A DNA stretch of 10,866 nucleotides, taken from positions 1-10,866 of IMG/VR virus record IMGVR_UViG_2579778899_000010, one strand, 5' to 3'. The notes under the pieces were generated by a model, which saw only the letters and a list, made by a program, of their open reading frames with translations, ran no database searches and was not told the DNA's origin. Positions 1 through 9,208 of the stretch are shown here, one piece after another (positions within the stretch are counted from its first letter, which is position 1; every line of letters starts with the position of its first letter). The translations under genes and the position numbers were made by a program. Origin of the DNA: a virus. Its lineage: Duplodnaviria; Heunggongvirae; Uroviricota; Caudoviricetes.

Positions 1-115
1 CACGTTCTAAGTTTTGGACGCCTGCTATAGAGATATCGACAGCCTCAGCAACTTCTCGCAACGTCAGCTTCATCTCTAAACGGCGTGCTTTCAGTCGTTC
101 GCCTCGTGTTTTCAT
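1..115 (-). CDS. Phage repressor-like HTH (XRE/cI family) regulator, N-terminal part only; gene continues beyond the window start
   Basis: Reverse complement of 115..1 reads ATG AAA ACA CGA GGC... = MKTRGERLKARRLEMKLTLREVAEAVDISIAGVQNLER, a typical XRE helix-turn-helix. It is divergent from the cro-like gene across operator repeats. A TATGAT hexamer lies 6 nt upstream of the ATG on the minus strand. The C-terminal domain is not visible. Confidence 0.75.
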   Translation of the reverse strand, partial: MKTRGERLKARRLEMKLTLREVAEAVDISIAGVQNLER

Positions 116-138
116 ACTGTAATCATAAATGATCTTCT

Positions 139-178
139 TATAGCTGGCTATAAAATTTATTTATTATAGCTGGCTTTA
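139..178. promoter_or_regulatory. Operator/divergent promoter region: two copies of TATAGCTGGCT(A/T)TA at 139-152 and 165-178 (imperfect 6-2-6 palindromes)
   Basis: Direct reading: TATAGC-TG-GCTATA at 139-152 and TATAGC-TG-GCTTTA at 165-178, centres 26 bp apart, between the divergently transcribed repressor-like and cro-like genes. The layout is that of lambdoid OR-type operators. Confidence 0.5.
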
Positions 179-206
179 ATTGTTGTTTATTGTTTATAAT
201 AACAAC

Positions 207-428
207 ATGAAACCAGAAGAACTTATTCGCCATTTTGGCAGTGTAGAAAAAGCAGCGGCAGGGGTAGGTGTAACACCCGGAGCTGTTTACCAATGGTTAA
301 CCGCTGGAGAGATTCCTTCATTGCGGCAAAGCGATATTGAAGTTCGTACTGCTTATAAGCTGAAGAGTGACTTTACAACTCGGCGGGTAAAGCAGTCGAT
401 TAAGGAGAGTCGTAAGCGTGGAGCTTGA
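207..428 (+). CDS. Cro-like small DNA-binding regulator (73 aa)
   Basis: ATG at 207 gives MKPEELIRHFGSVEKAAAGVGVTPGAVYQWLTAGEIPS..., with an HTH-like GSVEKAAAGVGVTPGAVYQW segment. It is first in the rightward operon, opposite the repressor. There is no SD; TATAAT at 195-200 sits 6 nt upstream of the ATG. The ORF track's 180 start is a TTG inside the operator. Confidence 0.65.
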   Translation: MKPEELIRHFGSVEKAAAGVGVTPGAVYQWLTAGEIPSLRQSDIEVRTAYKLKSDFTTRRVKQSIKESRKRGA

Positions 429-1128
429 GTATATACGCAGCTGCGTCTCTACGGCATTGGCTGATGTTCATTATCGCCAGCGTGGCATTCTGGAGGTCCA
501 GCTTGAGCAGATGCGTCTCGGTAGATCAGGACGGTTTAACAATAAACCAGTCCGGTCAATCAGTGTGGGGGATGATAACTCATACGAAGTGTCCGTTCCT
601 GCTGAGCCGGTTAGATTCCACCAGGGGAAAACATTTAAACAATCATCAATGTTGCTCACTGATATTGATTTTCAGAGCGCCAGCTGGCGCAGGGCTATTG
701 GTCAGTTGAATAACGAGGAATCAGCCTGGCTTTATTATTGCTACGGATGCAAGCCTGATTACAACAATGATGTGATTGTTTGTCAGTGGTTATGGCTTGA
801 TTTTCTGGTTGCTCATTCGGGGGGCGGCTTTAAAAAAATGAAGGCCTCCACGAAAAAAGCCATGCGGAAATTGATTTATTACGCGGCACAACAGGTTAAA
901 TCAGAACTTACGTGTGCTGAGGCAGTTGATGAGAGAGAACAGGACAGGCATCTGAGTTTTCTACTGAATATATCTATTGATAGCTGGAGACAAGATTATA
1001 AAGAACGCTGGCTTTTAATTAAGTCGCGATGTCTGAGCTTAAATCGAACTGCATTATTAAATGCGGCGGAGAAGCGCAGTGAAATCATCAAACGCCATCG
1101 GGCAGGAAGTGCCATTCTGTCTTTGTAA
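418..1128 (+). CDS. Hypothetical early-operon protein (236 aa); function not recognised (position is that of a cII-like or replication-type gene)
   Basis: GTG at 418 is preceded by the strong SD AAGGAGAG (401-408) and overlaps the cro-like stop. It is a long uninterrupted ORF in the operon frame. I cannot assign a family from the sequence alone. Confidence 0.6.
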   Translation: MELEYIRSCVSTALADVHYRQRGILEVQLEQMRLGRSGRFNNKPVRSISVGDDNSYEVSVPAEPVRFHQGKTFKQSSMLLTDIDFQSASWRRAIGQLNNEESAWLYYCYGCKPDYNNDVIVCQWLWLDFLVAHSGGGFKKMKASTKKAMRKLIYYAAQQVKSELTCAEAVDEREQDRHLSFLLNISIDSWRQDYKERWLLIKSRCLSLNRTALLNAAEKRSEIIKRHRAGSAILSL

Positions 1129-5315: not shown

Positions 5316-5603
5316 TTAATAAACAGCGCGAATATCGATGGTTGCGCCGCAGGCATGAGCATATTTAGCCAAAGTTTTCATACTTGCCCCTAAAGGATTG
5401 CTTTCCAGGCGGCTGATGGCTGACGGTCGCAACCCCATTCGTTCAGCCAGAGCTGATTTCGTTAAACCTGCTCTTTCCCTCATTTCGTATAACATTTCGA
5501 CCATCTCCAGCTCTTTGTCGGCCTCTTCATATCCTTTGACGGCTTCTGGAGTGTTGAGGAGTTTTTCTTTTACTTCGTTAAACGGGATGCCTTTCGCTTT
5601 CAT
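5316..5603 (-). CDS. HTH (XRE-family) antitoxin of a HigA-like type II TA pair (95 aa)
   Basis: Minus-strand ATG at 5603-5601 with SD AAGGAGA 7 nt upstream, overlapping the toxin stop by 1 nt. HTH segment LTKSALAERMGLRPSAISRLESN. Confidence 0.8.
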   Translation of the reverse strand: MKAKGIPFNEVKEKLLNTPEAVKGYEEADKELEMVEMLYEMRERAGLTKSALAERMGLRPSAISRLESNPLGASMKTLAKYAHACGATIDIRAVY

Positions 5604-5914
5604 CAGTTCATCTCCTTCAGGCGAGTTCTGGCGATTTCGATAGCCTTCACCGGTGTTTTCTGTGTCTTTTTTACAAATGCATGCAATAGATAAATTTCGT
5701 TACCAGTCGCGTAGGCGTACAGCGTTCTTGCGATGTTTTTATCCCCTACTCGTAGTTCAAAAAGCCCTCCACCTATTACACGGCTATGGGGCATCTTCAG
5801 TTTGTTGCCTTCCTTCTCCAGTCGCTCAATTAATCTGGTCATGCGACCTCGCAAATCATCTGGTAGTTCAAGCAGTTCATCCAGTGCTGCAGGGTGGGTT
5901 ATCACGTTAAACAT
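5603..5914 (-). CDS. RelE/ParE-superfamily toxin, HigB/Gp49-like (103 aa)
   Basis: Minus-strand ATG at 5914-5912 with GGAGG 7 nt upstream. Product MFNVITHPAALDELLELPDDLRGRMTRLIERL...GGLFELRVGDKNIARTLYAYATGNEIYLLHAFVKKTQKTP matches the RelE-fold Gp49/HigB pattern. Toxin-first order with a coupled HTH antitoxin. Confidence 0.8.
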   Translation of the reverse strand: MFNVITHPAALDELLELPDDLRGRMTRLIERLEKEGNKLKMPHSRVIGGGLFELRVGDKNIARTLYAYATGNEIYLLHAFVKKTQKTPVKAIEIARTRLKEMN

Positions 5915-6764: not shown

Positions 6765-7886
6765 ATGCGCATCGCCGGGTTAGCTTACCCAGGCAAAAAA
6801 ATAATAGCTATGTTCAAAACCACTAATATTCATGGCGCGCAACTCGTTTGCGCAGATTCTCTGCAATTTATCAAAACCATCCCTGATAACTCGGTCAATT
6901 TGATTGCAACAGACCCACCATACTTCGGCGTAAAGGCTAACGCATGGGATAACCAGTGGGATAGCGATGCTGACTTTTTGGGGTGGATTGATGAATTTTT
7001 GGCAGAATTTTGGCGGATATTGGCCCCTAATGGCAGCCTGTATATGTTTACCGGCTCTCGCCTTGCGTCAAAAATTGAATTATTAACTCGCGACCGTTTC
7101 AATGTTCTGAACCATATCATTTGGGCTAAACCCAGTGGTATGTGGCGCGGTTGTCATAAAGAAAGTTTAAGGGCTTATTTTCCTGCCACTGAAAGAATAT
7201 TATTTGCAGAGCATTACGGCGCGTCAGGTTATGCTAAAGGTCAGTCAGGTTATGCTTCAAAATGTGCAGATTTAAGAAAAAATATTTTTTCTCCACTAAT
7301 TGATGCTTTTTCGCTGGCTCGCCGTCAGTTAGATATATCAGCCGCAGACATTAATTCAGCAACAGGAAAGCAGATGTGTTCGCACTGGTTTTCTTATTCG
7401 CAGTGGCGGCTTCCATCATTAAGTGATTTTAATAAACTATGCGAATTATTTCGCAGGAAGGCAGATTCACTCGGTGTCCCGTGTCCATATCCTTTTAATG
7501 TTGATTATTCAGAACATGAAAAGCGTTATAGCGATCTGAAATTGCGTTATGAGGAAGTAAAGAAGCAGTATGATGATTTGAAGGCTCAGTATGAAAATTT
7601 GCGCCGCCCATTTCATGTTACTGCTGATGTACCTTATACCGATGTATGGGAGTTTCCTCCTGTGCAATATTATCCTGGCAAGCACCCATGTGAAAAACCT
7701 GCAGCGATGATGGAACATATTATAAAAAGTAGTTCCCGCCCCGGAGATATCGTTGCCGATTTCTTTATGGGATCAGGCTCTACTATTAAAGCCGCGCTGA
7801 AGTTAGGTCGTCAGGCAATCGGTATTGAGATTGAGGGTGAACGTTATCTTCAGACAGTTGATGAAGTGAAAAAGTTATTTGAGTAA
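6765..7886 (+). CDS. Orphan DNA methyltransferase, beta-class N6-adenine/N4-cytosine type (373 aa as drawn; alternative start ATG 6810)
   Basis: Motif IV DPPY in LIATDPPYFG near the N-terminus and motif I FFMGSGST near the C-terminus; this order is the beta-class permutation. A heptad-like insert YSEHEKRYSDLKLRYEEVKKQYDDLKAQYENL lies between them. Neither candidate start has an SD. No restriction endonuclease gene is adjacent. Confidence 0.85.
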   Translation: MRIAGLAYPGKKIIAMFKTTNIHGAQLVCADSLQFIKTIPDNSVNLIATDPPYFGVKANAWDNQWDSDADFLGWIDEFLAEFWRILAPNGSLYMFTGSRLASKIELLTRDRFNVLNHIIWAKPSGMWRGCHKESLRAYFPATERILFAEHYGASGYAKGQSGYASKCADLRKNIFSPLIDAFSLARRQLDISAADINSATGKQMCSHWFSYSQWRLPSLSDFNKLCELFRRKADSLGVPCPYPFNVDYSEHEKRYSDLKLRYEEVKKQYDDLKAQYENLRRPFHVTADVPYTDVWEFPPVQYYPGKHPCEKPAAMMEHIIKSSSRPGDIVADFFMGSGSTIKAALKLGRQAIGIEIEGERYLQTVDEVKKLFE

Positions 7887-7981: not shown

Positions 7982-8254
7982 ATGAAGATGGATGAACGAT
8001 ACAGCAGCGCATCTTATGGTAGTGCTGGTCTTACTGCGTTCTTTGCCAGCCTGTCATTGCAGGATTGGGGCTTCATTATCGGTGTCGCGTTCAGCATTAT
8101 CCTCGGTGTACTTACATACCGGCTCAATAAACGCGAGCAGATGAAGCGCACGAAGATATTGCAGGACATATTGGATAAAACTGATGCCAATAATATTTCC
8201 GCCACGGCGATGGTTATTGGTGAATTGGGAAAGAGAGCACCGAAGGAAATATGA
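7982..8254 (+). CDS. Holin, pinholin-like with two TMDs (90 aa), possible dual-start motif MKM
   Basis: ATG at 7982 and again at 7988. Two hydrophobic segments, [13 protein letters not shown] and [18 protein letters not shown], then a charged tail. Sits immediately upstream of, and overlapping, a SAR endolysin gene. Confidence 0.65.
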
Positions 8255-8817
8255 TGCAGTCATCATTACGCAAAGCTGTCGCAACTGCTATTGGTGGCGG
8301 GGCTATTGCCATAGCATCTGTGCTCATCTCTGGTCCGAGCGGCAACGATGGTCTGGAAGGTGTGAGACATAACCCCTACAAAGACATCGTTGGTGTATGG
8401 ACTGTATGTTACGGGCATACAGGAAAAGACATTATGCTCGGTAAAACGTATACCGAAGCAGAATGCAAAGCTCTCCTGAATAAAGACCTTGCTACTGTCG
8501 CCAGACAAATTAACCCGTACATCAAAGTCGATATACCGGAAACAACGCGTGGTGCTCTTTACTCGTTCGTTTACAACGTGGGTGCAGGCAATTTCAGAAC
8601 ATCGACACTTCTTCGCAAAATCAACCAGGGCGATATCAAAGGTGCATGTGATCAACTACGTCGCTGGACATATGCTGGCGGCAAGCAATGGAAAGGGCTG
8701 ATGACTCGCCGTGAGATTGAGCGTGAAGTCTGTTTGTGGGGCAGCAATGAGCAGAGTAACCGCAATTATCTCCGCACTGGTTATCTGCATCATCGTCTGC
8801 CTGTCGTGGGCTGTTAA
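8251..8817 (+). CDS. SAR-type endolysin (T4-lysozyme-like muramidase, GH24), with an apparently extended C-terminus (188 aa)
   Basis: N-terminal signal-anchor-release segment [26 protein letters not shown]. Catalytic region [25 protein letters not shown] carries the Glu/Asp/Thr arrangement. SD GAAGGAAAT precedes ATG 8251. The last 24 aa are the Rz leader read in another frame. Confidence 0.85.
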
Positions 8818-9208
8818 TCATTACCGTGATAACGCCATCGCCTACAAGGAGCAGCGCGACAAAAACGCCAGAGAGCTGAAGCTGGCGAACGCCACTATCA
8901 AAGACTTGCAGATCCGCCAGCGTGATGCAGCGGCGCTGGATGCCAAATACACGAAGGACTTAGCTGATGCCAAAAAGCAGCTTGATGATTTGCAGCGTTG
9001 TGTTCGCACTGGCAAGTGTGGGCTGCACCTCAACGCCAGATGTTCCGCGAACGGAGCGACCAGCACCGGCGGCCTGGGCGATGTTACCGGCCCCCGACTT
9101 ACTGACTCCGCTGAACGGGATTATTTCACCCTCAGAGAGCGAATCGTCACAGTGACGAAACAGGTTGGATATTTGCAGGAGTACATCAGGACGCAATGCC
9201 TGAATTAA
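8747..9208 (+). CDS. Rz: Rz i-spanin (153 aa)
   Basis: [49 protein letters not shown]... closely matches phage lambda Rz as I recall it: N-terminal TMD then a coiled-coil periplasmic domain, C-terminus ...YIRTQCLN. Confidence 0.85.
8967..9155 (+). CDS. Rz1: Rz1 o-spanin lipoprotein, nested within Rz in the +1 frame (62 aa)
   Basis: SD AAGGA 8 nt before ATG 8967. Signal peptide with lipobox-like ...ALASVGC, then a proline-rich mature part ending ...[11 protein letters not shown], as in lambda Rz1. Confidence 0.75.

Follow-up and report, generated by a model that had tools for sequence, protein, structure and literature searches.

The stretch of DNA analysed here (10,866 nucleotides; hereafter the window) begins with a pair of divergent regulatory genes. 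Specifically, positions 104-209 span the 91-nt intergenic region (77% A+T) that separates a leftward from a rightward gene, together with the beginnings of both genes, each of which opens with ATG AAA. The genes at this end of the window are:

1-115, minus strand: 5' part of cB, the prophage repressor gene; N-terminus MKTRGERLKARRLEMKLTLREV..., XRE-type HTH; the rest of the gene lies beyond the left end of the window
207-428, plus strand: cro, 73 aa, P22_Cro family (Pfam P22_Cro, 1.7e-22); a leaderless cro-Q mRNA is proposed to start at the A at 207
418-1128, plus strand: Q antiterminator gene (Pfam Phage_antiter_Q, 4e-84); GTG start; overlaps the end of cro

The full-length cB protein (198 aa, taken from Escherichia phage YDC107_1) contains the Pfam domains HTH_3 and Peptidase_S24, with the S24 match lying just below the cut-off. 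Cro is 87% identical to N15 Cro and matches structure 2HIN at 2e-32. The locus therefore carries the gene content of an immB region, namely an XRE HTH + S24 repressor divergent from an all-alpha Cro, with Q directly after cro. The first 1.2 kb of the window is 99.7% identical to YDC107_1, a Ravinvirus, 100% identical to several E. coli plasmids, and 74% identical at the DNA level to N15 and phiKO2. Near-identical records come from Ravinvirus phages and from E. coli plasmids, one of the latter deposited as linear, and all 21 places at which E. coli genomes match are on plasmids, with 0 on chromosomes. Judged by sequence, the start of the window is the immB lysis/lysogeny switch (cB, OR operators, cro and Q) of an N15-like telomere phage, and the host form would be an E. 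coli linear plasmid prophage; protelomerase and telRL do not lie within the window.

To assess conservation, we drew on phage records, IMG/VR and genomes for a set of 34 distinct cB-cro intergenic sequences, to which a contig scan of genomes contributed three loci only. The start codons used by the earlier note on this DNA, at 115 and 207, are the same ATGs that PGAP picks on the identical E. coli plasmids. The window contains no in-frame alternative cB start upstream of 115, and in-frame upstream cro starts are absent in 10 of the 34 relatives and inconsistent in the others. A cro start at TTG 180, as in the YDC107_1 and PhiR46_1 records, was rejected: it is not conserved, has no Shine-Dalgarno (SD) sequence and falls inside the operator/promoter, and MKPEEL forms the beginning of the Pfam model as well as of the crystallised N15 Cro chain (2HIN, 6ON0; residue 1 onward). 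A cB start at ATG 126-124 was likewise rejected, as it is out of frame in the window and reaches a stop after four codons.

The N15, phiKO2, PY54 and P840 records place the start of cB (or cI) at the ATG that lies inside a TATGAT hexamer, giving proteins that begin MIxxMKTRG. This ATG is in frame only where the hexamer is separated from the downstream ATG by 7 nt; in the window clade and three other relatives (L060, L062 and L066) it is not. Furthermore, the tripeptide encoded between the two ATGs takes several forms (IKG, IDR, INR, INS, INT and IST). The restriction to the 7-nt spacer and the variability of the intervening residues together indicate that the conserved cB start is the MKT ATG, and the annotated starts of N15, phiKO2, PY54 and P840 are thus probably four codons too far upstream.

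Flanking the two start codons, the intergenic region carries the following candidate promoter elements:

113-115, minus strand: cB start codon ATG, with the A at 115 as proposed leaderless +1; ATG in 34/34 relatives, at the conserved MK(T/K)RG
116-121, minus strand: 6-nt spacer TACAGT between -10 and cB ATG; length 6 or 7 nt in every relative; 14 sequence variants
122-127, minus strand: -10 TATGAT of the putative cB promoter (PRM equivalent); sigma-70 scan 9/12; TATGAT, TATCAT or TATTAT in 33/34 relatives
145-150, minus strand: -35 TAGCCA of the putative cB promoter; 17-bp spacer, inside OR3; hexamer and spacing common to N15, phiKO2 and PY54
171-176, plus strand: weak -35-like TGGCTT of the putative cro promoter; 18-bp spacer; positional homologue of the N15 PR2 -35 TAGCTT
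195-200, plus strand: -10 TATAAT of the putative cro promoter (PR equivalent); TATAAT in 28/34 relatives, TATTGT, TATCAT or TATTAT in four more
201-206, plus strand: 6-nt spacer AACAAC between -10 and cro ATG; length 6 or 7 nt in 32/34 relatives; 18 sequence variants

The geometry described in the earlier note is exact on both strands: TATAAT (195-200), AACAAC (201-206) and the cro ATG (207-209) on the plus strand, and TATGAT (127-122, read as ATCATA at 122-127 on the plus strand), TACAGT (121-116) and the repressor ATG (115-113) on the minus strand. The mirror arrangement is likewise real, with positions 107-129 and 193-215 forming a 23-nt imperfect inverted repeat that is 78% complementary. 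Both hexamers have A at position 2 and T at position 6 and match the -10 consensus in at least five of six positions (TATAAT 6/6, TATGAT 5/6). A 6-nt spacer makes the A of the start codon the seventh base after the -10, which is the usual position of transcription start. In a scan of positions 1-1200, TAGCCA-17 bp-TATGAT is the sole sigma-70-like site detected, its -35 matching the consensus at 4/6 positions, while the cro -35 TGGCTT matches TTGACA at only 2/6 and falls under the scan threshold. An extended -10 (TGn) was sought at both promoters and is absent from the sequence of either. Other -10-like hexamers occur on the plus strand (TAAAAT 151-156 and TATTAT 162-167) and on the minus strand (TATAAT 168-163 and TATTAT 201-196). 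Among the minus-strand hexamers of the window, TATGAT alone has a usable -35 partner.

Consistent with the earlier claim that neither gene has an SD, pairing of the 20 nt upstream of the start codon with the 16S 3' end is unfavourable for both cB (+0.4 kcal/mol) and cro (+1.5 kcal/mol). The corresponding values for 16 other mapped genes of the window range from -2.5 to -11.6 kcal/mol, with a median of about -7, in a comparison that omits the last four PGAP genes of NZ_CP145143, a record with which the window is not collinear past ~8.7 kb. In particular, Q has a strong SD, AAGGAG, with a pairing energy of -9.2 kcal/mol. A match of at least 5/6 to TATAAT positioned 5-8 nt before the start is found at cB and cro only, among the gene starts of the window. 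When the 91-nt intergenic region was shuffled 20,000 times with dinucleotide composition preserved, a hexamer of this quality 6-7 nt from the end arose in 5.4% and 5.9% of shuffles for the two sides taken singly, and on both sides at once in 0.3%. The proposed mRNA 5' ends fold worse than shuffled sequences (z = +1.6 and +0.95), with the first 22 nt of the cro mRNA and the first 8 nt of the cB mRNA unpaired in the minimum-energy fold. A cro RNA begun upstream is predicted to bury its AUG in a hairpin.

The arrangement is conserved. A -10 hexamer stands 6-7 nt before the ATG in 34/34 relatives on the cB side and in 32/34 on the cro side. On the cB side, 30/34 have TATGAT and the others TATCAT, TATTAT or TAATAT; in 33/34, positions 1, 2, 3, 5 and 6 are T, A, T, A and T, and position 4 alone varies. 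Positions 4 and 5 are the least constrained of a -10 hexamer. The hexamer-to-ATG spacers drift, with 14 variants for cB and 18 for cro, and the base preceding the ATG is a pyrimidine in 33/34 sequences on each side. The start codon itself is invariably ATG for both cB and cro (34/34 each), while Q and other genes of the window use GTG. Variation at positions 4 and 5, together with the exclusive use of ATG, is the pattern expected if the hexamers act as -10 elements and set transcription to begin at the A of the AUG. Even relatives with a Cro identity as low as about 40-50% keep the geometry, although the adjoining bases have changed.

Three operators lie between the two genes, none of them assigned to a strand:

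138-153: OR3, TTATAGCTGGCTATAA, identical to N15 OR3; -23 to -38 from the cB start and -54 to -69 from the cro start
164-179: OR2, TTATAGCTGGCTTTAA, 15/16 match to OR3; -49 to -64 from the cB start and -28 to -43 from the cro start
187-202: OR1, TTATTGTTTATAATAA, degenerate; -72 to -87 from the cB start and -5 to -20 from the cro start

The 16-bp palindromic OR consensus, TTATAGCTAGCTATAA, is matched exactly by OR3 and with one mismatch by OR2, and OR1 (TTATTGTTTATAATAA) is one base off N15 OR1 (TTATTGATTATAATAA). The start-to-start spacings, 26 bp from OR3 to OR2 and 23 bp from OR2 to OR1, are those of N15. The earlier note had each operator copy overlapping a -35 region, which holds for OR3 over the cB -35 and for OR2 over the position of the cro -35; the picture was incomplete, as there is also a third operator, OR1, which overlies the cro -10. 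The location of this -10 within OR1 means that operator function could account for part of its conservation. Cro of N15 and phiKO2 binds OR3 only, and CB also binds OR3 (PMC6649833, PMC4997575). From these binding data and the operator positions, CB on OR1 and OR2 would turn cro off, and Cro on OR3, or excess CB, would turn cB off.

Experimental data that bear on the transcript ends come from the related phage PY54. For cI and for cro of PY54, 5' RACE detected one mRNA species apiece, leaderless and beginning at the AUG (Hammerl et al. 2015, Viruses 7:2771, PMC4488713), with a RACE kit that leaves primary and processed 5' ends indistinguishable. For cI, the mapped end could be either of two in-frame AUGs, between which the text of the paper does not choose (PMC4488713). 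On the cro side, the hexamer CATAAT is followed by 6 nt and the ATG; cloned fragments repeatedly gained mutations in this -10 hexamer, and a 21-bp fragment with the cro -10 region only was still highly active (PMC4488713). On the cI side, PY54 has TAGCCA-17 bp-TATGAT followed by 7 nt and the ATG. PY54 shares this TAGCCA-17 bp-TATGAT module, at 6-7 nt from the ATG, with P840, N15, phiKO2 and the window.

The source promoter of the leaderless cI mRNA could not be named by the PY54 authors: fragments upstream of the annotated cI ATG had almost no promoter activity, and the strongest promoter in the cI direction was located at the 5' end of cro (PMC4488713). Comparison of coordinates would account for this result. 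The promoter-probe fragments start at 32,525 in PY54 (PMC4488713) and at 39,146 or 39,148 in phiKO2 (PMC4997575), and ATCATA, the complement of TATGAT, occupies 32,520-32,525 in PY54 and 39,141-39,146 in phiKO2. TATGAT is thus cut off and the promoter is absent from all published probe fragments, which would explain why the source promoter could not be named. The PY54 RACE construct, in contrast to the probe fragments, took in part of the cI gene (PMC4488713), which fits TATGAT as the missing cI promoter. In phiKO2, reporter fusions revealed promoters deeper within the OR region: two for cB, of moderate activity, and three for cro (PMC4997575). Mapped transcript 5' ends for this phage, N15 or phiKO2 were not found in the searchable literature, and PMC4997575 (phiKO2), PMC6649833 (N15 Cro structure), PMC10612081 (P840) and PMC12042878 (2025 Klebsiella telomere phages) hold no transcription-start data. 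A literature search for other leaderless cro switches returned PY54 only.

Taken together, the PY54 RACE data, the layout of lambda PRM and conservation in the 34 relatives support the leaderless transcripts that the earlier note had suggested, and we assign a probability of about 0.65 to the picture as a whole, namely two back-to-back sigma-70 promoters at 113-209 with both mRNAs leaderless. Leftward, RNA polymerase would use TAGCCA (150-145), a 17-bp spacer and TATGAT (127-122) to start at the A at 115 of the cB AUG. Rightward, the perfect -10 TATAAT (195-200), with a poor -35, would direct a start at the A at 207 and yield a cro-Q transcript. The first cistrons, cB and cro, would then be translated by ribosomes that bind a 5'-terminal AUG without an SD. 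Both the start sites and this mode of translation are extrapolated from PY54 RACE and lambda PRM; on that basis a leaderless cro mRNA is quite likely, and a leaderless cB mRNA is probable, to a slightly lesser degree. Leadered transcripts from additional upstream promoters may coexist with the leaderless ones, because the phiKO2 reporters show such additional promoters.

Those reporters also provide the main argument for an unlikely alternative, in which most cB and cro mRNA comes from promoters deeper in the OR region, carries AU-rich leaders of ~35-90 nt and is translated by SD-less initiation, e.g. aided by ribosomal protein S1, the ATG-adjacent hexamers being minor or inactive. In phiKO2, fragments that lack TATGAT still drive the reporter (P1 near the cro start and P2 adjoining OR3), and the three cro promoters overlap operators; the position of the strongest PY54 promoter in the cI direction, at the 5' end of cro, points the same way, as do the several putative promoters annotated in the N15 record and the extra -10-like hexamers on both strands of the window. 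However, PY54 RACE gave one species per gene, and that species was leaderless. In the window, moreover, the extra minus-strand hexamers lack the usable -35 that TATGAT has, the -10 of N15 PR1 is not conserved, no SD is available to a leader, and folding predictions place the AUG of a leadered cro RNA in a hairpin. Leadered mRNAs would also leave unexplained the fixed 6-7 nt distance between hexamer and ATG amid the drift of the spacers.

It is very improbable that TATGAT is conserved as the true start codon of cB, with an mRNA that begins at or upstream of its ATG (126-124 here). The GenBank records of N15, phiKO2, PY54 and P840 do start there, and in the window this ATG opens a 4-codon mini-ORF (ATG ATT ACA GTA TGA) whose stop overlaps the cB ATG, so that it could couple to cB via the overlapping ATGA. 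The frame and the residues between the two ATGs are, however, not conserved, as described above, and PGAP picks the MKT start. In addition, the best hexamer 5-8 nt before the upstream ATG matches at no more than 3/6 positions in the N15 and phiKO2 clades (by eye, the window is alike), and PY54 fragments upstream of the annotated ATG were almost without promoter activity. That the geometry is a functionless coincidence is hardly credible: an intergenic region of 77% A+T does yield one side alone in about 5% of shuffles, but it yields both in only 0.3%, and chance accounts neither for persistence of the geometry in relatives whose adjoining bases have changed nor for the experimental support from PY54.

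A leaderless switch layout has already been published for PY54 (2015); the window adds a probable further case, and the gain is incremental. E. coli and its phages make few leaderless mRNAs. If both arms of the switch are leaderless, it would differ from that of lambda, in which this applies to cI only, and conditions that favour or disfavour leaderless translation would act on both arms together. We regard as an even bet the broader proposal that TAGCCA-17 bp-TATGAT serves every enterobacterial telomere phage as its true PRM equivalent, that it lies partly inside the cB/cI coding sequence annotated for N15, phiKO2, PY54 and P840, whose starts would be four codons too far upstream, and that a switch with both arms leaderless is a hallmark of the group. 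For the telomere phages, this proposal would mean corrected cB/cI starts, a repressor promoter that was left out of the published reporters and a clearer operator-to-promoter map; N15-based linear vectors would gain from a correct map of the switch.

The immB regions of N15 (U45242) and phiKO2 (Hammerl et al. 2016, PMC4997575) have the same genes as the window, an identical OR3, the 26/23-bp operator spacing and the same -10 and -35 hexamers on both sides, except that the cro-side -35 is TAGCTT in N15 and TGGCTT in the window. The N15 record U45242, which corresponds to the N15 immB study as cited in PMC4488713, already annotates homologues of both -10 hexamers of the window. The -10 hexamer and the cB ATG are 7 nt apart in N15 and phiKO2, against 6 nt in the window; at cro the interval is 7 nt in N15, against 6 nt in both phiKO2 and the window. 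The window further differs in that its OR2 nearly copies OR3 (15/16), and in that the N15 and phiKO2 records start cB at the ATG inside TATGAT.

The immB region of PY54 resembles the window in its homologous cI/cB and cro genes, with Q further downstream, in a 16-bp OR3-type operator upstream of the repressor gene, in TAGCCA-17 bp-TATGAT by the repressor ATG and in a -10 hexamer 6 nt before the cro ATG. Unlike the window, PY54 has a Cro that is only about 35% identical, one recognisable operator instead of three, an intergenic region of 116 nt (counted from the conserved MKK ATG) instead of 91, an extra ORF between cro and Q, CATAAT as cro -10, and a cI spacer of 7 nt instead of 6.

Lambda shares with the window a divergent repressor/cro switch with three operators, of which OR1 and OR2 lie over the -10 and -35 of PR. 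At lambda PRM/cI, TAGATT is followed by 6 nt (TAACGT) and the ATG, and the lambda cI mRNA, as is well established (cited in PMC4488713), is leaderless and starts at the AUG. In contrast, the 18-nt leader of lambda cro carries a strong SD, AAGGAGG, whereas cro of the window is proposed to be leaderless, and neither the proteins nor the operators of the two switches are related in sequence. Lambda has 100 nt between the two genes and the window 91 nt; at 91 nt, OR2 would be centred at about -56 from the cB start and could not take the position from which CI activates PRM. The proposed arrangement is thus lambda-like for the repressor and PY54-like for both genes.

In the window clade, OR2 (164-179) reads TTATAGCTGGCTTTAA and matches OR3 at 15 of 16 positions. 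This sequence differs from OR2 of N15, TTATACCTAGCTTTAA, in that the left half-site is back to the consensus. OR3 is the only site bound by Cro of N15 and phiKO2 (PMC6649833, PMC4997575), and the surroundings of the Cro helix-turn-helix (TPGAVYQWL) are unchanged in the window clade. Because OR2 is a near-copy of OR3 with a consensus left half-site, and because the helix-turn-helix surroundings are conserved, the sequence comparison suggests that window-clade Cro might bind OR2 as well, a further binding site through which it might repress its own promoter.

OR1 and the cro −10 element are bracketed by an inverted repeat at 181-207 (TGTTGTT, 181-187, versus AACAACA, 201-207), and the right arm finishes with the first base (A) of the cro start codon. 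The corresponding arms of the sister type (L003, the PhiR46_1 locus) are TGCGATT and AACCGCA; specifically, the pairs 183/205 and 184/204 differ between the two types in both arms, with complementarity kept. One pair is broken in each of two other relatives (L018 and L021), and N15 and phiKO2 have no counterpart of the repeat. An RNA hairpin could form only in transcripts begun upstream, in which case the cro AUG would be occluded; alternatively, the repeat could act at the DNA level.

On the cB side, a perfect 5-2-5 palindrome, ATCATAAATGAT (122-133), takes in the −10 element; it is also present in N15 and is imperfect in phiKO2 and others. A minus-strand mini-ORF (112-126; ATG ATT ACA GTA TGA) has its first codon within TATGAT, and its stop shares bases with the cB ATG (ATGA). 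The mini-ORF would be relevant only if transcription starts at or upstream of 126.

Several start codons in database records look wrong. The cB/cI start of N15 (L001 873-875), phiKO2 (L006 818-820), PY54 (L069 490-492), and P840 (L009 794-796) is annotated at the ATG within the TATGAT −10 element, which precedes the conserved MK(T/K)RG by four codons, and cro of YDC107_1 (L002 2180) and PhiR46_1 (L003 874) is annotated from a TTG within the operator region.

Several IMG/VR contigs carry the locus in two copies of opposite orientation (locus pairs L014/L015, L027/L034, L031/L037, L035/L040, and L046/L047), and one contig with such a pair is 92,470 nt long, about two genome lengths. Inverted pairs would be expected if a linear plasmid prophage were assembled across a hairpin telomere or were present as a head-to-head dimer. 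In Klebsiella phage Kpn74 (L008 212-880), the segment with cB has the opposite orientation with respect to cro. The breakpoint is immediately left of OR3, and the operators are therefore separated from both the TATGAT promoter and the 5′ end of cB; this inversion may have arisen in assembly or reflect a genuine rearrangement. A contig labelled Limoniibacter endophyticus (L064) has a phiKO2-type cro with the TATAAT, 6 nt, ATG module, and neither OR3, OR2 nor the conserved cB N-terminus was found upstream of this cro. Contamination is suspected here, or else a prophage remnant that has been rearranged.

Further along the window, three features were assigned through the PGAP annotation of a near-identical plasmid:

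5316-5914, minus strand: RelE/ParE toxin and HTH antitoxin
6810-7886, plus strand: DNA methyltransferase
7982-9185, plus strand: lysis cassette, lysozyme RrrD and lysis protein

Just left of the window, the repA-cB spacer of YDC107_1 (L002 1274-1518) contains no operator copy within three mismatches of OR3, whereas N15 and phiKO2 have OL1 and OL2 between repA and cB. Control of replication by CB may differ in the window clade, or the sites there may be more degenerate.
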